Shown here piece by piece: positions 2,893 to 63,975 of a DNA stretch of 64,000 nucleotides. Below the pieces are notes generated by a model. The model was not told where the DNA came from. It worked only from the letters and a program-made list of their open reading frames with translations, and did no database searches. Position 1 is the first letter of the stretch; the number at the start of each line of letters is the position of its first letter. Made by a program: the position numbers and the translations under genes. Location: positions 78,740,001 through 78,804,000 of the forward strand of contig NC_135805.1 in assembly GCF_964213995.1 (NCBI RefSeq), given 5' to 3'. The DNA comes from Mustelus asterias (Eukaryota).

Positions 2893-3930
2893 TTACTCTG
2901 AAAAAAGATTAATTGTGGAAGAATCAGTGTTCAATATCTGACAAGAAATTATAAGCTTTAGCGTTTTACAAAACCAGGGATACAAGAAAGCATAAAGCAA
3001 AGGGTTTAAAGTACAATTAAAGAAGCCAAACCATGCAAATACACTATCCAAAGATGATGGGATTAGAAAGTTAAAATATGGATTAAGAATGCTATTTACA
3101 TAGAAAGGCAGCCAGGAGAATGTAAAAATTCCTATTAATATGTCTTGGTTTCTAATAACTATTTGATCCTTTTTGTGCAAGATTTTAACATTGTTTTCTT
3201 CTGTATGTTCACTATTATTTGGCAAATTTCCAATTTTTCTAACCTGTTTGCATCTTGCCACAAAACATATTTTGACATATATACCTAAAATGATAAAAAT
3301 TGGAATAAAAAATACAATCACTGCTTCCACATGCCCCTCAAACTTGTGATATGCAACACAGCTGCCCTCACAGGATGTAATAGCCGTATAATCATCGACT
3401 GATCTTTTACTAAAGTCTAGTAAAAACACACTAAGTCCGTAAAAGACGGCAAACAGCCAGATTAATAACACAGTCACAATCGTTACAGGCAGAGTGATCG
3501 CTATAGGGTGGAGCAAAGGGTCACACATAGCATAGTAACGATCAATGGCAATAAAACATAAAGTATAAATTGAAACTATGGTTAACACAATATCCACAAT
3601 TGAGTGAACTTTACAAAATACTTCTCCAAAATACCAGCATGTTTCTACAGACCTGACCATACTATAAGGCAACACAATCAACCCCACCAGAAAGTCCACA
3701 ACAGCCAAAGATAAGAGAAGACAGTTGGTGGGTGTCTGTAGTTGCTTGAAATGTAGAACAGAGATGATCACCACAAGATTTCCAAATATAGTAATTAGTA
3801 TTGAAATGGTAATAAAAATATACAGTGTGGCATTGACTGCCGTTGACCTGGTGACTCTAGGACAGGATGTGTTGATAAATTCAAAGCAATATTGCACATC
3901 TTCTGAATTCTCAAGATCTGTTAAACTCAT
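2893..3930 (-). CDS. Trace amine-associated receptor, divergent (TAAR2-4-like lineage), 345 aa
   Basis: Intact intronless 7TM ORF: N-terminal YCFE..N.SC, GN in TM1, SLAVVD, PYSMVRSVETCWYFG, D3.32, DRY, and a near-TAAR signature NCTLNPLLYAFLYPWF. Confidence 0.93.
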   Translation of the reverse strand: MSLTDLENSEDVQYCFEFINTSCPRVTRSTAVNATLYIFITISILITIFGNLVVIISVLHFKQLQTPTNCLLLSLAVVDFLVGLIVLPYSMVRSVETCWYFGEVFCKVHSIVDIVLTIVSIYTLCFIAIDRYYAMCDPLLHPIAITLPVTIVTVLLIWLFAVFYGLSVFLLDFSKRSVDDYTAITSCEGSCVAYHKFEGHVEAVIVFFIPIFIILGIYVKICFVARCKQVRKIGNLPNNSEHTEENNVKILHKKDQIVIRNQDILIGIFTFSWLPFYVNSILNPYFNFLIPSSLDSVFAWFGFFNCTLNPLLYAFLYPWFCKTLKLIISCQILNTDSSTINLFSE

Positions 3931-4519
3931 TCTTTTTCACATTGATAATCCAAAGTCTTGAATCACGGCGAGACGACAAAGTAGATTTTCCAGAATTATT
4001 GATTGGAGTGGTCTTTACCAAGAACTGTGATTTTCTTCATTTCCAGTTAATCTCTGATTTCTGTAGAAACAACCTATAATTAGTGGCATATTTGAAGCAA
4101 TTGAAGTGCACTTTCAAAATGTATGAGAAGGCTTTTTAGTGCATTTGAGAGTAAAACTGCACAACATCAGCAAAACCGACCTAGAATACAGAATTGCTGG
4201 ATTTAATTCCTTGCATCCTGCTCCACAACATACAGGCAGGGGATACTTCTATTCCCCAAATAAATTGGAAACCACATTTGAACAATATCAGGGGAAATTT
4301 GAGGGCAATTTTGAGTTAGCCTATGAAATCTATAAAGTTGATCCTAATCAGGCCCATTGCCCTGGCAGGCAAGGTTTCAATTGGCATAGGGACGGTGAAA
4401 TAGTAGTCTGTCCTTCATATCTGTTCCAGTATTCAATTAGATCATGACTAGTCTGTACCTGAAATCTATTTCCAGGCATATGTTCCATATCCCTTGGTGC
4501 AATTACCTAAAAATCAATC

Positions 4520-18577: not shown

Positions 18578-19618
18578 CTATTCCGAAAATAAATTAATTG
18601 TTGAAGAATCGGAGTTCAATATTTTCCAGGTCAGGATAAGTTTTAGTGATTTACGAAACCAGGGGTAAAAGAAAGCATAAAGCATTGGGTTGAAAGCAGA
18701 ATTAAAATACCCAAACCATACAAATGTGTCAAAGATAATTGGTAAAGTGGAAAAATTTATAATTGGATCGATAACAGTAGTGATAAAGAAAGGAATCCAA
18801 CAAGTCAAAAAGATACCCATGACTATCCCTAATGTTTTTGCAGCCTTGTTTTCTTTACTTCTTGAGATTCTGCTTTTATTTTCTTCTGTAGAACTAGTTT
18901 CCTTGTTTGTATTCCCAATTACTCTAGCATGTTTACTTGCCACAAAAAATATTTTGATATAAATACTCAGCATTATAGCACCTGGAATAAAAAATGAAAT
19001 TGTTGGAGCCAATACTCCCCACAGTTTATTAAAGAGAAGAACACAACTACCTACACAAGAACTGGAAGCAATTAAATCCTCAATGCCCACCAGATTAATC
19101 TCAGAGAAGACTACACCAAATGCAAATAGGGCAGGAATCACCCAGCTAACTGTGACAAAAATGGTAATTACAGGAGGAGTGATTTTTGTCAGGTAGAGTA
19201 AAGGGTCACACACAGCACAACAGCGGTCAATTGCAATAAAGCACAAATGAAAAATAGATGTCGTACTCATCATCATATCTAAGCTTGAGTGAATTTTGCA
19301 AAATGTACTCCCAAAATACCAGCATGTTTCAATGGATCTCACCATGCTGTACGGCATGACAAGGAAGCCCACGAGAAAATCTGCAATAGCCAAGGAAAGT
19401 ACAAGGTAGTTTGTTGGTGTCTGGAGCTGCCTGAAGTATGAGATTGAAATGATCACTATTGAGTTTCCAAAGACTGTGACAAGTATTGACATCATCAAAA
19501 AAACGTACAGCGTCGCCTGAGTTCCCGTTGACCTGACAGCTTTGGGGCAGGATTCGTTAACATATTCAAAGCAGTATTGCAGGTTTTCCAGAATCGCACC
19601 AGAAGTTGAATTTGTCAT
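18578..19618 (-). CDS. Trace amine-associated receptor, TAAR2/3/4-like, 346 aa
   Basis: Intact intronless 7TM ORF; D3.32, KENKAAKTLG, CWIP, and a perfect TAAR signature NSAFNPMLYAFFYPWF; DRY is DRC. Confidence 0.95.
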   Translation of the reverse strand: MTNSTSGAILENLQYCFEYVNESCPKAVRSTGTQATLYVFLMMSILVTVFGNSIVIISISYFRQLQTPTNYLVLSLAIADFLVGFLVMPYSMVRSIETCWYFGSTFCKIHSSLDMMMSTTSIFHLCFIAIDRCCAVCDPLLYLTKITPPVITIFVTVSWVIPALFAFGVVFSEINLVGIEDLIASSSCVGSCVLLFNKLWGVLAPTISFFIPGAIMLSIYIKIFFVASKHARVIGNTNKETSSTEENKSRISRSKENKAAKTLGIVMGIFLTCWIPFFITTVIDPIINFSTLPIIFDTFVWFGYFNSAFNPMLYAFFYPWFRKSLKLILTWKILNSDSSTINLFSE

Positions 19619-31373: not shown

Positions 31374-34300
31374 TTCACCCCTCCTTTGAGAACAAAGGCC
31401 GGCGGGGTACGAAAACAGAATAAAATGTCAGCAGATTATAAGTTCAGACGGTCTGGAGGACCGCACCGTCGTTGTGACCTCCTCAATACTGGCGGTGACA
31501 CCGGAGTAGGCACTTGCGATGGCGTTCTCCCCAAAATGGCGTCCAGCTGTTCTTCCACGGACTCACAGGCCGGTTGACCCTGATGAGACGGTAGTGCAGG
31601 GGATCCTGACACGTCCTGCAGTGGCGACCATCTTCGGGGCTCAGGCAAGCTGTGCATTGGAGTAAAACTGTTAAGCAATGGTCCCGATGCTGCCTGCGCT
31701 ATGTCCGGGGAAGAAATAAGGGATAATGGATTCGTCACTGGGGGTATGGGAGCGACAGGAGTTGCTACGTCCCCTGCAGGTGCCGGTCTCGGATCGAGAC
31801 CGTGTCCTCTCGCCCGTCAGGATATGCCACATAGGCATACTGAGGGTTGCCGTGGAGGAGGTGGACCTGTTCGACCAAGGGGTCGGACTTGCGGGCCCTT
31901 ACATGTCGCCGCAGGAGGACGGGTCCTGGGTACGTCAACCAGGCTGGTAAAGATATCCCCGAGGAAGACTTCCGAGGGAATGAGAACATCCTCTCGTGGG
32001 GAGTAGCATTGGTTGCCGTACACAGGAGGGAGCGAATAGAGTGAAGCGCATCAGGGAGGACCTCCTGCCAACGGGAGACTGGAAGACCTTTGGATTTTAG
32101 CGCCAATAGGACAGCCTTCCAGACTGTAGCATTCTCTCGTTCCACCTGTCCATTACCCCTAGGGTTGTAACTCGTGGTCCTACTAGAGGCAATCCCGTAT
32201 GAGAGCAGGAATTGCCTCAAGGCATCGCTCATGAACGACGAGCCCCTGTCGCTATGGATATAGCTGGGGTACCCGAACAGGGTAAAAAGATCACGGAATG
32301 CCTTGATCACCGTGGCAGCTGATGTGTCCGAGCAGGGGACAACAAACGGGAGCTGGGAGTACTCATCGATTATGTTCAGAAAGTACACATTCCGATCTGT
32401 TGAGGGAAGGGGCCCTTAAAATCAACACTCAGCCTCTTGAAGGGGCGAGTGGCCTTGACCAAATGTGCCCGATCAGGTCGGTAAAAGTGCGGTTTGCATT
32501 CCGCGCAAATCCGACAGCTCCTTGTTACCGACCTGACGTCCTCCACCGAGTAAGGCAGGTTGCGGGCTTTGACAAAGTGGTAGAGCCCAGTGACCCCAGG
32601 ATGGCACAGATCATTATGGAGGGCGTTCAAGCGATCCTCCTGAATACTAGCGCATGTTCCGTGCGAGAGGGCATCCGAGGGCTCATTGAGTTTCCCTGGA
32701 CGATACATGATATCGTAGTTATAGGTGGAGAGTTCAATTCTCCACCGCAAGATCTTGTCATTCTCGATCTTGCCCCTCTGCGTGTTGTTGAACATGAACG
32801 CCACGGACCGCTGGTCCGTGATCAGGGTGAACCGCTTTCCCGCCAGGTAATGGCGCCAGTGTCTGACGGCCTCCACAATGGCCTGGGCCTCCTTCTCCAC
32901 CGCTGAATGCCGAATTTCGGGGCCTTGGAGGGTGCGGGAAAAAAACGCGACGGGCCTGCCCGCCTGGTTAAGTGTGGCGGCCAGAGCGAAATCAGATGCA
33001 TCGCTTTCCACCTGAAAAGGGATGGATTCGTCTACCGTGTGCATCGTGGCTTTCGCGATGTCGTCTTTCAATTTCTTGAAGGCCAATTGGGCCTCTGGCG
33101 TGAATGGAAAAGTCGTGGACTTAATAAGCGGACGGGCTTTGTCTGCGTAGTTGGGGACCCACTGCGCATAATAGGAGAAGAAGCCTAGGCATCTTCTCAG
33201 TGCTTTTGCGCTAGCGGGCAAGGGTAGTTCAGCAAGGGGGCGCATACGGTCTGGATCAGGGCCAATGACCCCGTTTTCCACCACGTATCCCAGGATGGCT
33301 AACCGGCGCGTACGGAATACACACTTCTCCCTGTTGTAGGTCAAGTTCAGGCGAGATGCAGTGCGTCAGAAGTTATGGAGGTTTGTGTCATGGTCCTGCT
33401 GATCATGGCCGCAGATGGTGACGTTATCCAGGTACGGGAAGGTAGCCCGCAGCCTGTTCTGGTCCACCATTCGGTCCATAGCACGCTGGAAGACCGAGAC
33501 CCCATTGGTGACACCAAATGGAACCCTAAGAAAATGATACAAACGACCATCCGCCTCAAAGGCCGTGTACTGTCGGTCCTCTGGGCGAATGGGTCGGTAA
33601 AAGTGCGGTTTGCATTCCGCGCAAATCCGACAGCTCCTTGTTACCGACCTGACGTCCTCCACCGAGTAAGGCAGGTTGCGGGCTTTGACAAAGTGGTAGA
33701 GCCGAGTGACCCCAGGATGGCACAGATCATTATGGAGGGCGTTCAAGCGATCCTCCTGAATACTAGCGCATGTTCCGTGCGAGAGGGCATCCGAGGGCTC
33801 ATTGAGTTTCCCTGGACGATACATGATATCGTAGTTATAGGTCTATGGTGGAGAACACCCGGTACTGCGCAATCTGATTGACCATATCAGATATGCGCGG
33901 GAGAGGATACGCATCCAGCTGCGTATATCGGTTAATGGTCTGACTGTAATCAATGACCATCCGGGGTTTGTTCCCGCTCTTGACCACCACAACCTGTGCT
34001 CTCCATGGACTAACACTGGGCTGTATGATCCCTTCTTTGAGGAGTCGCTGAACCTCAGATCTGATGAAGATCCGATCCTCAGTGCTGTAACGCCTACTTT
34101 TAGTAGCGATGGGCTTGCAGCCTGGTACCAGATTCTGAAATAAAGAGGGTGTGGTGATCTTTAACGTAGAAAGATTGCAGGCGGGGCGTGTTGGGCAATT
34201 TGGAGACTGCAGCTGTTCTCCCACTGCCAGCGAAGGGAGTGGCCCACCGTACTGTAGGATCACACTCCTCAAGTGGACCATGAAGTTTAGTCCAAGAAGA

Positions 34301-34857
34301 ATTGGTGCGCAAAGATACGGCAACACAAGGAGCTTGAAACGCTCGTAAATTGTGCCTTGTACTTTCAAGGTTACCACACAACTCCCTAGCACGGCGACAG
34401 ACCGGGACCTTGATGCCATAGACATTGTCTGTTTGGCAGGTTGAATCTGGAGTCCACACCTCTTCACAGTGCCAGGGTGGATAAAGCTCTCAGTGCTCCC
34501 GCTGTCAAACAGACAATAAAGCACATGATTGTTTACCTGGATATCCATCATTGAACGATCAAGCCTGTGAGGCTTAGCCTGGTCCAGGATGATCGACGCC
34601 ACCGTTGGTCCATGAACGCCACTGCAGGCAGCTGAAGTCGATGCTGAGGACCCCTGCTGGTCGCTCGTGGTCATCGTCGACCAACATGGCCGCCCCCATG
34701 AATCGCACATGGGTGAGGGCGCCAAACTCAGTGACCCCTGGTGGTCATACTCCTCCGACTCCGTCGACCGCAATGGCATCGTCCTGGACTCGCACGTGGA
34801 CGAACCCCGCGAGGACTTCGACGACTATGGTGATTATCCCAGCTCCGAAGAGTGACA
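31056..34857 (-). mobile_element. Young, 5'-truncated Gypsy/Ty3 LTR retrotransposon (PR-RT-RH-IN), inactivated
   Basis: Protease LFDSGS, RT SPW...IDY...YLDN, RNase H SDASD...EKEA, zinc finger H-H-C-C, integrase IIDEYS...HSDRG...GQVER, C-terminal LRRS.R..PPDRL; CpG-rich; an in-frame TGA, frameshifts and an internal duplication; no gag or 5' LTR. Confidence 0.93.
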
Positions 34858-35216: not shown

Positions 35217-35880
35217 AGGCAAATGGGATGTTGGCCTATATCGCCAGGGGGATAGAATATAAAAGCAGAGATGTCTTGCTGCATCTGTACAGGGCATTGG
35301 TGAGGCCGCAGCTGGAATACTGTGTGCAGTTTTGGTCCCCTTATTTGCGGAAGGATATATTGGCCTTGGAGGGAGTGCAGAGAAGGTTCACCAGGTTGAT
35401 ACCAGAGATGAGGGGTGTTGATTATGAGGAGAGACTGAGCAGATTGGGTTTGTATTTGTTGGAATTTAGAAGGCTGAGGGGGGATCTTATAGAGACCTAT
35501 AAGATAATGAAGGGGCTGGATGGGATAGAGATGGAGAGATTCTTTCCACTTAGAAAGGAAACTAGAACTAGAGGGCACAGCCTCAAAATAAAGGGGGGTC
35601 AGTTTAGGACAGAGTTGAGGAGGAACTTCTTCTCTCAGAGGGTGGTGAATCTCTGGAATTCTCTGCCCACTGAAGTGGTGGAGGCTCCCTCGTTGAATAT
35701 GTTTAAATCACGGATAGATGGATTCCTGATCGGTAAGGGAATTAGGGGTTATAGGGATCAGGCGGGTAAGTGGAACTGATCCACTTCAGATCAGCCATGA
35801 TCTTATTGAATGGCGGGGCAGGCTCGAGGGGCTAGATGGCCTACTCCTGCTCCTATTTCTTATGTTCTTATGTTCTTATG
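35217..35880 (+). mobile_element. CR1 3' fragment with open ORF2 C-terminus
   Basis: ANGMLAYIARGIEYKS...LVRPQLEYCVQFWSP...RNFFSQRVVNLWNSLP*; tail (TTCTTATG)n. Confidence 0.9.
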
Positions 35881-41300: not shown

Positions 41301-42845
41301 ACAAAGAACAAAGAACAATACAGCACAGGAACAGGCCCTTCAGCCCTCCAAGCCCGCGCCGCTTCCTGGTCCAAACTAGACCATTCTTTTGTATCCCTCC
41401 ATTCCCACTCCATTCATGTGGCTATCTAGATAAGTCTTAAACGTTCCCAGTGTGTCCGCCTCCACCACCTTGCCCGGCAGCGCATTTCAGGCCCCCACCA
41501 CCCTCTGCGTTAAATACGTCCTTCTGATATCCGTGTTAAACCTCCCCCCCCCGCCCCCCCTCACCTTGAACCTATGACCCCTCGTGAATGTCACCACCGA
41601 CCTGGGAAAAAGCTTCCCACCGTTCACCCTATCTATGCCTTTCATAATTTTATTCACCTCTATTAGGTCACCCCTCATCCTCCGTCTTTCTAGTGAGAAC
41701 AACCCCAGTTTACCCAATCTCTCCTCATAACTAAGCCCTTCCATAACAGGCAACATCCTGGTAAACCTCCTCTGTACTCTCTCTAAAGCCTCCACGTCCT
41801 TCCGGGAGTGTGGTGACCAGAACTGGGCGAAGTATTCCAAATGCGGCCGAACCAACGTTCTATATAACCGCAACATCAGACCCCAACTTTTATACTCTAT
41901 GCCCCGTCCTATGGAGGCAAGCATGCCATATGCCTTCTTCACTACCTTCTCCACCTGTGACGTCACCTTCAAGGATCTGTGGACTTGCACACCCAGGTCC
42001 CTCTGCGTATCTACACCCTTTATGGTTCTGCCATTTATCGTATAGCTCCCCCCTACGTTAGTTCTACCAAAATGCATCACTTCGTATTTATCTGGATTGA
42101 ACTCCATCTGCCATTTCTTTGCCCAAATTTCCAGCCTATCTATATCCATCTGTAGCCTCTGACAATGTTCCTCACTATCTGCAAGTCCAGCCATTTTCGT
42201 GTTGTCCGCAAACTTACTGATCACCCCAGTTACACCTTCTTCCAGATCGTTTATATAAATCACGAACAGCAGAGGTCCCAATACAGAGCCCTGCGGAACA
42301 CCACTAGTCACAGGCATCCAGCCGGAAAAAGACCCTTCCACTACCACCCTCTGTCTTCTGTGACCAAGCCAGTTCTCCACCCATCTAGCCACCTCCCCCT
42401 TTATCTCATGAGATCCAACCTTTTGCACCAACCTACCATGAGGGACTTTATCATACGCCTTACTAAAGTCCATATAGACGACATCCACGGCCCTTCCCTC
42501 GTCAACCATTCTAGTCACTTCTTCAAAAAACTCCACCAGGTTAGTGAGGCATGACCTCCCTCTCACAAAACCATGCTGACTATCGTTAATGAGTTTATTC
42601 CTTTCTAAATGCGCATACATCCTATCTCTAAGAATCCTCTCCAACAACTTCCCTACCACGGACGTCAAGCTCACCGGCCTATAATTTCCCGGGTTACCCT
42701 TCCTACCCTTCTTATACAACGGGACCACATTAGCTATCCTCCAATCCTCTGGGACCTCACCTGTGTCCAGTGACGAGACAAAGATTTGTGTCAGATGCCC
42801 AGCGATTTCATCTCTCCGTCAGAGGCCCAGCGATTTCATCTCTCG
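41301..42845 (-). mobile_element. CR1 LINE, 5'-truncated, long open RT ORF (41487-42728)
   Basis: NYRPVSLTS, QHGF, DFSKAYD, GVPQGSVLGP, FADN (FADD mutated), LEY..QFWSP; tail (TTCTTTG)n. Confidence 0.95.
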
Positions 42846-45212: not shown

Positions 45213-46341
45213 TTGGTTAAGAAGGTTAAGGCTCATGGGATACAAGGAGAAGTGGCTAGATGGGTGGAGAACTGGCTTGGCCATAGGAGACAGAGGGTAG
45301 TGGTCGAAGGGTCTTTTTCCGGCTGGAGGTCTGTGACCAGTGGTGTTCCGCAGGGCTCTGTACTGGGACCTCTGCTATTTGTGATATATATAAATGATTT
45401 GGAAGAAGGTGTAACTGGTGTAATCAGCAAGTTTGCGGATGACACGAAGATGGCTGGACTTGTGGATAGCGAAGAGCATTGTCGGGCAATACAGCAGGAT
45501 ATAGATAGGCTGGAAAATTGGGCGGAGAGGTGGCAGATGGAGTTTAATCCGGATAAATGCGAAGTGATGCATTTTGGAAGAAATAATGTAGGGAGGAGTT
45601 ATACAATAAATGGCAGAGTCATCAGGAGTATAGAAACACAGAGGGACCGAGGTGTGCAAGTCCACAAATCCTTGAAGGTGGCAACACAGGTGGAGAAGGT
45701 GGTGAAGAAGGCATATGGTATGCTTGCCTTTATAGGATGGGGTATAGAGTATAAAAGCTGGAGTCTGATGATGCAGCTGTATAGAACGCTGGTTAGGCCA
45801 CATTTGGAGTACTGCGTCCAGTTCTGGTCGCCGCACTACCAGAAGGACGTGGAGGTGTTAGAGAGAGTGCAGAGAAGGTTTACCAGGATGTTGCCTGGTA
45901 TGGAGGATCTTAGCTATGAGGAGAGATTGGGTAGACTGGGGTTGTTCTCCTTGGAAAGACGGAGAATGAGGGGAGATCTAATAGAGATGTACAAGATTAT
46001 GAAGGGTATAGATAGGGTGAACAGTGGGAAGCTTTTTCCCAGGTCGGAGGTGACGATCACGAGGGGTCACGGGCTCAAGGTGAGAGGGGCGAAGTATAAC
46101 TCAGATATCAGAGGGACGTTTTTTACACAGAGGGTGGTGGGGGCCTGGAATGCGCTGCCAAGTAGTGTGGTGGAGGCAGGCACGCTGACATCGTTTAAGA
46201 CTTACCTGGATAGTCACATGAGCAGCCTGGGAATGGAGGGATACAAACGATTGGTCTAGTTGGACCAAGGAGTGGCACAGGCTTGGAGGGCCGAAGGGCC
46301 TGTTTCCTGTGCTGTACTGTTCTTTGTTCTTTGTTCTTTGT
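45213..46341 (+). mobile_element. CR1 LINE, 5'-truncated, RT ORF open to its stop (46259)
   Basis: GVPQGSVLGP, KFADDTK, FNPDKC, LVRPHLEYCVQFWSP; tail (TTCTTTG)3. Confidence 0.95.
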
Positions 46342-48817: not shown

Positions 48818-48999
48818 AAGTGAGACTTAGGCCTTTGGATAGTTTGAGTATGAGTGGGTCTCAAAATCAACCCTTCTAAATTCATATTCACAACAATTAC
48901 TCATGCATTAAAACACTCCCAGTGCAAATTAGTCAAATTGAAAAATAGCTTGTTGACTATCCATTTTTGCACACTGTTTACTATTTATGTGTAGTTTAT

Positions 49000-50028
49000 T
49001 CACAGATCAAGTTCATTCTGGACGGAACAGGTTTTGCAGCTACAAATGATTGTTACAGCTTTTCTAAACCAGGAAAAGAAGTAGCCGTAGATTATGGGAT
49101 TGAAGGTAGAATTCAAGTAGCCAAACCATACAAGAGTGTCGATCAAGACAGGAGAGGTTGTATAATTGACAAAACCATCCATTGTGTTGCAAATGAAAAA
49201 TGGAGACCAACACATCAGGAAGACACCCATCACCAGTCCGAGAGTTTTGGCAGCTTTTCTTTCGTGGTTTCGTGAAAATCTAATTTCGCTTCCTTGGCTG
49301 CTTGAAATTTGAACTGTTATTTGGTTTATGCTTCTGACCTGTTTCATAGCCGCAAAATAAATCTTACAATAAATACACAGCATGGTGACTCCCGGAATGT
49401 AAAAGGAAATGATTGAGGAAACCACCCCTGATATATCACTAAATATAAGTACGCAGCTTCCATAGCAAGCAACATGATTGGAGTAAAATTCTTCAATTCC
49501 TTTTAGGTTTAATTCGAAAAAGATTAAGGGAAAAGCAAAAACAGCTGAAATGACCCAACTAACAATGATCATCCTCTTCACTGACGAGAAAGTCATTCTT
49601 ATTTTGTATCTCAGTGGGTCACACACTGCGTAGTAACGGTCAACAGAGATGAAACACAGATGTAATATTGAAACCGTGCTGAGCATAATATCACAGCTGG
49701 AATGAATCTTGCAAAACAAATGCCCCAAGTACCAACACGTTTCAACAGACCTCACCATACTGTAAGGCATAACTAGACAGCCCAACAGAAAATCAGCAGT
49801 AGCCAAGGAAAGAATCAGATAGTTGGTGGGCGAATGAAGGTGTTTGAAATGCAAAATTGAAATGATGAGTAACATGTTACCAATGAGAGTGCAGAGAATT
49901 ATTAGCACCAGAAATATATACATTGTAAATCGAAAGCCATTTGATCGGTTTGCTTTAAGGCAAGATCCATTTACAAAGTCATAGCAGCATTGAGCAACTT
50001 CTGTTGTCTCAGAGAGATTTGTGTCCAT
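49000..50028 (-). CDS. TAAR1: Trace amine-associated receptor 1, 342 aa (ATG at 50028; the ORF track starts at an upstream TTG)
   Basis: Kozak ACAATGG; TAAR1-typical segments DIMLS, DRYYAVCDPLRYK, ELNLKGIEEFY..HV.C.GSC, FS.ISGV....SFYIPG, ERKAAKTLG; signature NSTFNPIIYGYFFSWF. Confidence 0.93.
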   Translation of the reverse strand: MDTNLSETTEVAQCCYDFVNGSCLKANRSNGFRFTMYIFLVLIILCTLIGNMLLIISILHFKHLHSPTNYLILSLATADFLLGCLVMPYSMVRSVETCWYLGHLFCKIHSSCDIMLSTVSILHLCFISVDRYYAVCDPLRYKIRMTFSSVKRMIIVSWVISAVFAFPLIFFELNLKGIEEFYSNHVACYGSCVLIFSDISGVVSSIISFYIPGVTMLCIYCKIYFAAMKQVRSINQITVQISSSQGSEIRFSRNHERKAAKTLGLVMGVFLMCWSPFFICNTMDGFVNYTTSPVLIDTLVWFGYLNSTFNPIIYGYFFSWFRKAVTIICSCKTCSVQNELDL

Positions 50029-61655: not shown

Positions 61656-63975
61656 AGGCCACGATTCTCCCATTGCGGCCCGCCACTTTTCTGGTGGGTC
61701 CGGCCGGGAATTGTGCGTCTGCGGCCTTCAACAGGGATTTGTGCGTGCGCTGGGAACGCATGCGCATCTCCCAGAGTCGGCGGCCAGTCGCCGGCCAGAC
61801 CACACTGGAAACCGGCGGGAAGGCAGGTAAGTAATTTAAATCTGTTTTAAATCTATTTTAAATATGTATTTTTGTTAATTATCAGGACCTTTCAGGTCCC
61901 ATTGAATCTCCCACCCCGCCAGGAGTACTTCATTCCGACCGGGTTCAGACTAGCTCCCCATGTTCGGGGAACTAGCGGGAGACCCCATGGGAATGAAGGA
62001 GGGCAATCGGGGCTCCCTAGGGGGTCAGGCAGCAGGGGCGTAGTGTCCCCTGGGCATGGACACTCTGGCAGTGCCAGCCTGTGCCCCCTGGCACTGCCTA
62101 AGGGGAAAAGTGCCCATGCCCGGGGGCACCTTGGCACTGCCCACCAGGCATCAGGCAGTGCCAAGGGGTGGGGCCTATTGTGGGCGGGGCTGAGGTGCGA
62201 TTGGTGGGGGTCCCGCTGCCACTCTGCATTAGGATCGGTGTGGGATGGAGAGAGGGCAGCGATTAGGGCATGCTGGCTTTGTGGGGTGGGGGGGGGGGGT
62301 GTTGGGGTGTGGTCTGCTGGGGGGGGTGGTTCTTTGAGGAGGTAACAAGGAGGTTAGATAAAGGAGAACCAGTGGATGTGATTTATGTAGATTTCCAGAA
62401 GGCCTTTGACAAGGTGCCGCATAGGAGACTGTTAAATAAGTTAAGCGCCCATGGTGTTAAGGGTAAGATCCTGGCACGGCCAGAGGATTGGCTGACTAGC
62501 AGAAGGCAGAGAGTGGGGACAAAGGGGTCTTTTTCAGGACGGCAGCTGGTGACTAGTGGTGTGCCTCAGGGGTCGGTGCTGGGACCACAACTTTTCACAA
62601 TATACATTAACGATTTGAAGAAGGAACTGAAGGCACTGTTGCTAAGTTTGCAGATGCATCAAAGATATGTAGAGGGACAAGTAGTATTGAGGAAGCAGGG
62701 GGGCAGCAGAAGGACTTGGACAGGTTAGGAGAGTGGACAAAGAAGTGGCAGATGGGATACAATGTGGAAAAGTGTGAGGTTATGCACTTTAGAAGGAGAA
62801 TGGAGGCATAGACTATTTTTTGAATGGGAAAATGCTTAGGAAATCAGAAACACAAAGGGGCTTGGGAGTCATTGTTCAAGATTCTCTTAAGGTTGACATG
62901 CAGGTTCAGTCGGCAGTTAGGAAGGCAAATGTAATGTTCGCATTCATGTCGAGAGGGCTAGAATACAAGAGCAGGGATGTACTTCTGAGGCTATATAAAG
63001 CTCTGGTCAGATCCCATTTGGAGTATTGTGAACAGTTTTGGGTCCCCTACCTAAGAAAGGATGTGCTGGCCTTGGAAAGGGTCCAGAGGAGGTTCACAAG
63101 AATGATCCCTGGAATGAAGAGGAATGGTATGAGAAATGGTTGAGGACTCTGGGTCTGTACTCGTTAGAGTTTAGAAGGATGAGGGGGGATCTTATTGAAA
63201 ATTACAGGATACTGCGAGGCCTGGATAGAGTGGATGTGGAGAGGATATTTCCACTAGTAGGAAAAACTAGAACCAGAGGGCACAATCTCAGGTTAAAGGG
63301 ATGATCCTTTAAAACAGAGATGAGGAGGAATTTCTTCAGCCAGAGAATGGTGAATCTGTGGAACTCTTTGCTGCAGAAGGCTGTGGAGGCCAGGTCATTG
63401 AGTGTCTTTAAGACAGAGAAAGATACGTTCTTGATTAATAAGGGGATCAGGGGTTATGGGGAAAAGGCAGGAGAATGGGGATGAGAAAAATATCAGCCAT
63501 GATTGAATGGCGGAGCAGACTCGATGGGCTGAGTGGCCTAATTCTGCTCCTGTCATATGGTCTTATGGGGGGGACCTGCCTGGGGGGGTCTGACCCTGGG
63601 GGGGGGGGGGGGGGCGGAATGGGGGGATCTGCCGAGGTGAGGGTGGTGGGGGGATCACCACTGCTGGGGGGTGGGGACTGGGCATCGGGGCGCTCCGGGA
63701 CTGGGGGGGTGGGGGGGATCTGGGCTGGCCCAGGAATTGCTGTGGGGGCCGCGATCTGGCCGTGGGGGGGGCGCTGGAGGGGCAGCACCTTGGGGGTCCC
63801 GGGCTGGCCAGCGATCGAGCTGACCAGCAAATGGGGAGATTGACAGATCGGGACAACTACGCATGCGCAGAGTTCCAGAACTGTCAGACTCCGGCGCAAA
63901 TAGGCCCCGCCCCCCTGGATGTTTAATAATATTCACGACTAGGACCTCTTCAGTGCACAGAGTATGGAGATTCAG
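61656..63975. mobile_element. GC-rich Harbinger-like element interrupted by CR1
   Basis: Begins GGCCACGATTCTCCC; G-run-rich halves flank the CR1 at 62330-63566; right end near GGAGATTC is approximate. Confidence 0.5.
62330..63566 (+). mobile_element. CR1 LINE fragment (frameshifted RT)
   Basis: FFEEVT..LDKG..VDVIYVDFQKAFDKVPH, GVPQGSVLGP, LEYC.QFW.PY, CR1 3' UTR. Confidence 0.92.

Follow-up and report, generated by a model that had tools for sequence, protein, structure and literature searches.

A TAAR gene near one end of a 64-kb stretch of Mustelus asterias DNA (64,000 nucleotides, referred to here as the window) encodes acidic residues at two pocket positions, which raises the question of what such a receptor binds, where it acts and how it signals. 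The gene is a single open reading frame on the minus strand (2893..3930) that encodes 345 amino acids and has no internal stop. Residue numbers were counted from the x.50 anchors. This count places the canonical amine anchor, Asp113, at 3.32 (3592..3594, minus strand), Glu202 at the second acidic pocket position, 5.42 (3325..3327, minus), and a third acid, Glu198, one helical turn above it at 5.38 (3337..3339, minus). In TM7, the same count gives Phe303 at 7.43 (3022..3024, minus) and Cys306 at 7.46. In HMMER alignments to the PDB sequences, Glu202 falls on the TM5 Asp of zebrafish TAAR13c, 13d and 13e, and the register is free of gaps to P5.50 (P210). The count and the alignments agree with an earlier note on this DNA, which had read D3.32, E5.42, E5.38 and F7.43 in a TAAR at this locus; its reading of Ala and Ser at 5.42 and of Tyr at 7.43 in the two paralogs of the window is also confirmed. 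The class A motifs DRY, PIF, W6.48, WxP and NPxxY are intact, with Ser in place of Cys6.47. The TAAR TM7 signature NSxxNPxxYxxxYxWF, as stated in PMC8890504, is matched at all positions but Ser7.46, which is Cys in this receptor and in two catsharks and Ser in 17 of the 20 ortholog rows described below. The whole window is contained in one contig of a public run from the same organism (X2) with 0 differences; this match is not independent, because X2 may be the source of the window.

The gene is an intact copy, in Mustelus asterias, of the known taar2/TAARS2 of cartilaginous fishes. TAARS2 (Guo et al. 2022, PMC8890504), catshark taar2 (Sharma et al. 2019, PMC6368271) and elephant shark TAAR S2a (PMC4786312) are the same gene under three names. 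By-eye comparison with the supplements of two of these papers matched record P0227 to Sc-Taar2 (PMC6368271) and record P0003 to bamboo-shark TAARS2 (PMC8890504). In a protein search with the product, the closest relatives at the top of the list were all from cartilaginous fishes, and a cluster look-up gave more; identity is 89-90% to Scyliorhinus taar2, 82% to bamboo shark and 62% to chimaera. Two trees, both quick searches supported by SH-aLRT only, give the same placement. In a 79-row tree, the gene belongs to a 14-row TAARS2 clade (SH-aLRT 100) that spans chimaera, sawshark, sevengill, rays, skate, horn, carpet and mackerel sharks and catsharks, where it adjoins Scyliorhinus (92-93 over both trees). 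This clade lies within a 74-row TAAR clade (SH-aLRT 99), grouped away from TARLs and other aminergic receptors. A 60-row tree, from which column 5.42, 16 rows and three long outgroups were dropped, agrees and recovers a TAARS2 clade of 10 rows (SH-aLRT 100). The trees and the orthologs from sharks, rays and chimaeras bear out the earlier assignment to a cartilaginous-fish TAAR. TAARS2 is not a member of the TAAR13 clade and stands apart from it in both free trees.

To determine which features of the pocket are conserved, residues were counted over 20 ortholog rows of 300-400 amino acids, which comprise the Mustelus asterias gene, 16 named species, a second chimaera record and two skate-like records. 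Models P0010, P0013, P0016, P0019 and P0236, all five of them shorter, were excluded. Position 5.42 is acidic in all 20 rows, chimaera included, with Asp in 17 and Glu in three. Asp5.42 occurs in chimaera, rays, skates and most sharks; Glu5.42 is common only to the Mustelus asterias gene, basking shark and white shark, and is what sets this gene apart from other TAARS2 sequences, with which it shares the acids at 3.32 and 5.42, F7.43 and the same TM6 changes. Position 3.32 is likewise acidic in 20 of 20 rows (13 Asp, 7 Glu), the Glu being found in carpet sharks and skates. Glu is present at 5.38 in 18 rows, with Gly in both chimaera rows, and Phe at 7.43 in all 19 rows with an intact TM7; the twentieth row (P0232) has a divergent predicted C-terminus and is outside the 7.43 count. 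The comparison set consists of 206 other TAAR rows and is biased towards TAAR4 and poor in clade III; in this set, 35 rows have acids at both the 3.32 and 5.42 columns, 7.43 is Tyr in 200 rows and Phe in six, and 5.38 is Trp in 171, with Glu absent from the five commonest states. The two-acid state and F7.43 are not due to chance. Thus, of the features expected to be conserved in orthologs, the acid at 5.42 and F7.43 are kept and Glu itself is not. A Glu-specific or species-specific gain at 5.42 is ruled out by the Asp in 17 of 20 rows. Judged from the ortholog residues, E5.42 represents a conservative replacement of an old Asp, and because 5.42 and 3.32 are acidic throughout, it is neither a new gain nor a step towards loss of 3.32. 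Its history involves either two gains, in Mustelus asterias and in mackerel sharks, or one gain with reversion in catsharks. The two-acid pocket itself is already in print, as Guo et al. (2022, PMC8890504) describe both Asp3.32 and Asp5.42 in TAARS2; the novelty that had been claimed for a two-acid receptor does not hold, and the addition made here is one Asp-to-Glu variant.

Two further residues of the orthologs are variable. At 7.35, the Mustelus asterias gene has Asp (residue 295, 3046..3048, minus), a residue seen in 13 of 20 ortholog rows, whereas Phe or Tyr predominates in other TAARs; together with E5.38, this residue may form an acidic entrance to the pocket. Tyr5.58, invariant elsewhere, gives way to Asn in skate records P0233 and P0013 (among the counted rows, in 2 of 20), which suggests a further relaxation or alteration of the activation switches in some skates.

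Selection on the gene was assessed against contigs of a close relative. Among 38 listed differences of 41, 29 are synonymous and nine non-synonymous, which corresponds to a pN/pS of 0.09-0.13, or at most 0.17 were all three unlisted differences non-synonymous. This range (0.09-0.17) therefore indicates purifying selection, and the orthologs are not evolving neutrally. At codon 5.42, no change is present in three closer relatives among the listed difference rows (40 of 62). The identity of TAARS2 orthologs is also as high as that of the TAARS1a paralog in three of three species pairs.

Our preferred reading, held tentatively and at somewhat less than even confidence, is that the acids at 3.32 and 5.42 of TAARS2 clamp a di- or polycationic amine, that the receptor acts mainly in retina and brain, and that its Gs/olf coupling is weak or different as a consequence of a remodelled TM6. 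The ligand part draws on zebrafish, in which five two-aspartate TAARs detect di-cations and require both Asp residues (PMC4695389). By this analogy, the acids of TAARS2 would likely hold the amine between TM3 and TM5, and exchange of Asp and Glu at 3.32 or 5.42 would tune the distance from one charge to the other. The presence of two acids does not ensure a response to diamines, since TAAR6/8 with Asp5.43 give monoamine responses only (PMC8890504). In those receptors, a TM5 deletion moves the Asp to 5.43 (PMC8890504); the Mustelus asterias receptor has no such deletion. In mouse TAAR7f, Tyr7.43 bonds Asp3.32 and touches the ligand (10.1101/2023.07.07.547762). The Phe at 7.43 of TAARS2 removes this bond, which may be why Glu is tolerated at 3.32. 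On the pocket residues, a di-cation remains the most plausible ligand for TAARS2, and candidates would be an endogenous di-cation (histamine, agmatine or a polyamine) or a relative outside the amine panel described next.

Bamboo-shark TAARS2 was cloned (table S2, PMC8890504) and, according to the header of table S3 of that paper, is absent from the receptors deorphaned in a screen of 97 amines at 100 μM. The panel includes cadaverine, putrescine, agmatine, histamine, spermidine and spermine. Responses were recorded through a CRE reporter in HEK293 cells, and the main text nowhere uses the phrase "surface expression" (PMC8890504). Of 248 cloned TAARs, 50 were matched to new ligands (PMC8890504). 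The silence of TAARS2 weighs little against a di-cation, because most cloned TAARs were silent and because the bamboo-shark ortholog has Glu3.32 (with Asp5.42). It may also be a result of the remodelled G-protein face of TM6.

Comparison with known systems places the pocket of TAARS2 close to, and yet distinct from, that of zebrafish TAAR13a/c/d/e (PDB 9m3s, 9m2s, 9m0x, 9m0z, 9m2o, 9m40). These receptors share D3.32 and the acid at 5.42 in the same register and are the best sequence and fold matches in the PDB, yet their identity is about 40% and they form a separate branch. Unlike TAARS2, TAAR13 has Trp5.38, Tyr7.43 and a canonical TM6 (Lys6.32, Thr6.36, Leu6.37), and its ligands and Gs-complex structures are established; the two pockets differ at 3.37, 5.38, 6.52, 7.43 and the residue after the ECL2 cysteine. 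The histamine H2 receptor, a brain-type aminergic receptor for a di-cation, also combines D3.32 and D5.42 (PMC4695389), as does the H2-like locus of this genome (L010). Its identity to the Mustelus asterias receptor is about 29%, and H2 has Thr5.46, Tyr7.43 and Leu6.37 where this receptor has Val, Phe and Gln. The teleost clade III receptors, non-classical monoamine receptors with Asp5.42, share the acid at 5.42 but, unlike TAARS2, lack Asp3.32 (PMC4695389).

An AlphaFold2 model of the product, calculated from an 80-row alignment, has seven long helices (mean pLDDT 79, pTM 0.80) and is poorly resolved at ECL2 and at residues 194-196, which adjoin E198 (5.38). The Foldseek matches at ranks 1-5 are zebrafish TAAR13-Gs complexes with bound diamine or histamine, and VIA gave Z scores of 33.8-34.6 and rmsd values of 2.2-2.4 for the zebrafish TAAR13 structures, with the next match at 32.4. 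This closeness of fold mostly follows from the sequence identity of about 40% and does not indicate the ligand. From its register, and in line with the fold match, E202 would be oriented towards the pocket, at a distance from 3.32 that may suit a diamine.

The proposed site of action is taken from catshark. RT-PCR on the olfactory organ detected every catshark taar gene, whereas in situ hybridization showed taar1a only (Syed et al. 2023, PMC10116579). For catshark taar2, RNA data are described as specific to the eye, and in situ hybridization labels layers of the retina, several brain regions and sparse cells of the juvenile olfactory epithelium (PMC11979771); the taar2 probe of that paper is taken to be Sc-Taar2 from the common name and from its citation of Syed et al. 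2023. By extension from catshark, the main site of action of TAARS2 is likely to be retina and brain, and this expression makes a ligand endogenous to these tissues more likely than an odour. An olfactory role of taar2 may exist in addition, as suggested by the RT-PCR signal and the sparse juvenile cells. In run X10, from a close relative and only guessed to be RNA, the gene is covered (window positions 2910-3980) at a depth of about 345 in two contigs, one of which runs 255 bases further on the 5' side; this coverage is no proof of transcription.

The third part of the preferred reading concerns TM6. TAARS2 is set apart at eleven positions from nearly all of the other TAAR rows, and five of these positions are in TM6, four at 6.32-6.40 and one at 6.47. 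The cytoplasmic segment 6.32-6.38 (3142..3162, minus) of the Mustelus asterias receptor has Ile6.32, Asn6.36, Gln6.37 and Asp6.38 where other TAARs usually have Lys, Thr, Leu and Gly/Ser/Ala. Gln6.37 is found in 20 of 20 orthologs, as opposed to Leu6.37 in 205 of the 206 other TAAR rows. Lys6.32 (205 of 206 other rows) and Thr6.36 (195 of 206) are present in none of the 20 orthologs, which have Ile/Met/Thr and Asn/Lys, respectively, and Val6.40 is mostly replaced by Leu or Ile. At 6.47, Ser272 (3115..3117, minus) converts the CWxP motif to SWxP; Ser occupies this position in all 20 orthologs and Cys in 197 of 206 other TAAR rows. Further diagnostic sites include His3.42, which is Asn or Thr, and Tyr7.43, which is Phe. 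The TM6 register is free of gaps from P6.50, and the chimaera sequence retains the canonical residues that flank Asn-Gln. Ile3.46 is kept, as are DRY, Y5.58, PIF, W6.48 and NPxxY, and the patch positions 3.54, 5.65 and 6.33 are mostly hydrophobic. Positions 6.36 and 6.37 belong to a patch that accommodates the C-terminal leucine of G-alpha as well as arrestin and GRK; in other receptors, coupling falls when this patch is made hydrophilic or small (10.64898/2026.02.25.707970). The 3.46-6.37 pair forms an inactive-state contact, and the GnRH receptor signals despite a polar Thr6.37 (PMC5662886). The GnRH receptor, the retained activation motifs and the three hydrophobic patch positions speak against reading too much into the TM6 changes. 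Based on these reports, Gln6.37, Asn6.36 and the loss of Lys6.32 would alter transducer coupling, and Gs/olf coupling of TAARS2 is likely weak or changed through the remodelled G-protein face. No mention of these TM6 changes was found in the accessible portion of the literature searched, which excludes subscription journals.

A broader form of this reading is possible, although we do not consider it probable as a whole. In it, TAARS2 is an atypical retinal and brain amine receptor of sharks, rays and chimaeras whose polycation pocket of two to three acids has been kept for 400 million years, whose TM6 has been rebuilt such that the receptor is uncoupled, biased or tonic, and which is a surviving branch of the first two-acid TAAR, the ancestor of TAAR13, TAAR5-9 and clade III.

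The earlier note had instead proposed an olfactory diamine sensor. In its full form, the gene would encode an olfactory sensor of cadaverine or putrescine that signals through Gs/olf like TAAR13c and acquired its TM5 acid independently in cartilaginous fishes. The two acids in the TAAR13 register, the position of the chondrichthyan acid-bearing clade apart from TAAR13 and clade II in the free trees, which allows two gains, and the sparse taar2 cells of the juvenile catshark olfactory epithelium (PMC11979771) are consistent with this proposal. Against it, the bamboo-shark ortholog gave no listed hit in a CRE-reporter screen with cadaverine and putrescine (PMC8890504), taar2 was unseen by in situ hybridization in the adult catshark olfactory epithelium as reported in PMC10116579, one common origin of the acid is not rejected (AU p 0.389), and the TAAR13 TM6 motif is not retained in TAARS2. 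The di-cation part of the proposal survives as the most plausible reading of the pocket, and we regard the olfactory sensor as unlikely.

A receptor that binds amines without the usual G-protein signalling, as a scavenger, an arrestin-biased receptor or a modulatory partner in retinal or brain neurons, is also rather unlikely. The concentration of diagnostic sites in TM6 (4 of 11 at 6.32-6.40, one at 6.47), the binding of arrestin and GRK to the same patch (10.64898/2026.02.25.707970) and the combination of a silent cAMP screen (PMC8890504) with long conservation would fit such a role; retention of DRY, Y5.58, NPxxY and PIF, which suggests a working activation switch, argues against it. Constitutive activity, in which loss of the hydrophobic 3.46-6.37 contact would open TM6 and produce a tonic signal that amines modulate or suppress, is considered improbable. 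This contact is key to the closed state (PMC5662886), Ile3.46 is kept opposite Gln6.37 in 20 of 20 orthologs, and an agonist screen could miss such a receptor. However, the same residue is needed for G-alpha binding in the open state (10.64898/2026.02.25.707970, PMC5662886), and no report of high basal activity was found in the available text of Guo et al. (2022, PMC8890504).

Little probability is also assigned to a monoamine receptor that uses a working anchor shifted to TM5, with D3.32 weakened by the loss of Tyr7.43. The F7.43 of all intact orthologs and the Glu3.32 of seven of 20 rows would be expected of such a shift. In contrast to clade III, which loses the acid at 3.32 (PMC4695389), TAARS2 has Asp or Glu there in 20 of 20 rows, so the earlier suggestion of an intermediate in a TM3-to-TM5 anchor shift fails. 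In addition, the clade-III-like bichir rows without D3.32 mostly retain Tyr7.43, and F7.43 is therefore no marker of an anchor shift. Finally, a decaying, non-functional gene with odd residues left by neutral drift is very improbable and largely refuted by the ortholog residue counts and pN/pS: TAAR pseudogenes are frequent in cartilaginous fishes (PMC8032801, PMC10116579) and some ortholog models are partial, but the frame is intact, pN/pS is 0.09-0.17 and the odd residues are fixed from chimaera to rays and sharks.

The genome contains four TAAR genes, all within 92 kb of contig C5; a search of the window, of the 30 kb to its left and of the scored genome candidates brought up no additional TAAR gene or remnant. 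A syntaxin-family exon (L012, G000:C5:78714917-78715048) lies 28 kb to the left of the cluster, with the gene at 2893..3930 as its nearest TAAR; from this position, we infer that the exon belongs to STX7 rather than to a paralog. In mammals, TAAR5-9 are found at the STX7 end of the cluster. Tetrapod TAAR clusters lie between VNN and STX7 (PMC4786312). Among the best candidates scored in this genome, both Vanin_C matches are on contig C2 (near 61.0 Mb) and none is on C5; the linkage of VNN and TAAR genes seen in tetrapods may therefore be absent in this genome. Of the two paralogs in the window, the class II, TAAR4-like gene (18578..19618, minus) is intact and has D3.32, A5.42, Y7.43 and a canonical TM6; its DRY motif reads DRC. 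Its best matches are TAAR4-like proteins of coelacanth and sturgeon (61-64%). Among its best 120 matches, cartilaginous fishes contribute a single likely ortholog, chimaera record P0173 (60%), and the taar3 published for chimaera is interrupted by a break; most sharks may therefore have lost this gene. The second paralog (49000..50028, minus) belongs to the TAARS1a group and has D3.32, S5.42, Y7.43 and a canonical TM6. At its end (~48980-49040, minus), the tail is unlike that of its orthologs and the next frame resembles their C-terminus, which suggests a small frameshifting indel after helix 8. Broken retrotransposon-like open reading frames are located between the TAAR genes (31765-34779, 35228-35779, 41487-42620, 45450-46259 and 62270-62728); from their motifs, we take these to be protease, reverse transcriptase, RNase H, integrase-like and LINE-like reverse transcriptase pieces.

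With respect to the origin of the TM5 acid, its distribution over the orthologs indicates that it is older than the split of chimaeras and elasmobranchs, which is dated to about 400 million years (PMC8032801). Two scenarios for Asp5.42, either convergence or a single ancestral gain with later losses, were put forward by Guo et al. (2022, PMC8890504). In the free trees, the bony-fish acid-bearing receptors (TAAR13, clade II and clade-III-like) form a clade separate from the chondrichthyan one. A constraint that unites the two clades lowers the log-likelihood by 2.25 units and is not rejected (p-AU 0.389), which is no proof of a joint clade either, and the five changes at 5.42 on the free tree, where the Asp of clade II was counted in the column to which it aligns, cannot separate one origin from two. 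The recent or independent gain suggested by the earlier note is thus contradicted as to recency by the Asp5.42 of chimaera, rays, skates and most sharks, and as to independence a single origin with the bony-fish receptors is not rejected. A second class II TAAR of horn shark (P0011) belongs to the same clade as TAARS2 (SH-aLRT 99) and shares D3.32 and D5.42. Unlike TAARS2, it keeps the canonical Trp5.38, Tyr7.43 and Leu6.37 and is for this reason the more TAAR13-like diamine candidate. In the carpet-shark copies of the P0011 lineage (whale shark P0058, bamboo shark P0206), Ser3.32 and Asn5.42 are present with F7.43, and both acids are lost. No ortholog of P0011 was found in the Mustelus asterias genome among the scored candidates.

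For the biology of TAARS2, the eye and brain expression favours an endogenous ligand over an odour of death. The TM6 changes provide a testable reason for the orphan status of the receptor, as cAMP reporters may read the wrong pathway. Ligands for TAARS2 and for its horn-shark paralog would help to show whether Asp5.42 had a single origin, older than the divergence of sharks and bony fishes, or several.
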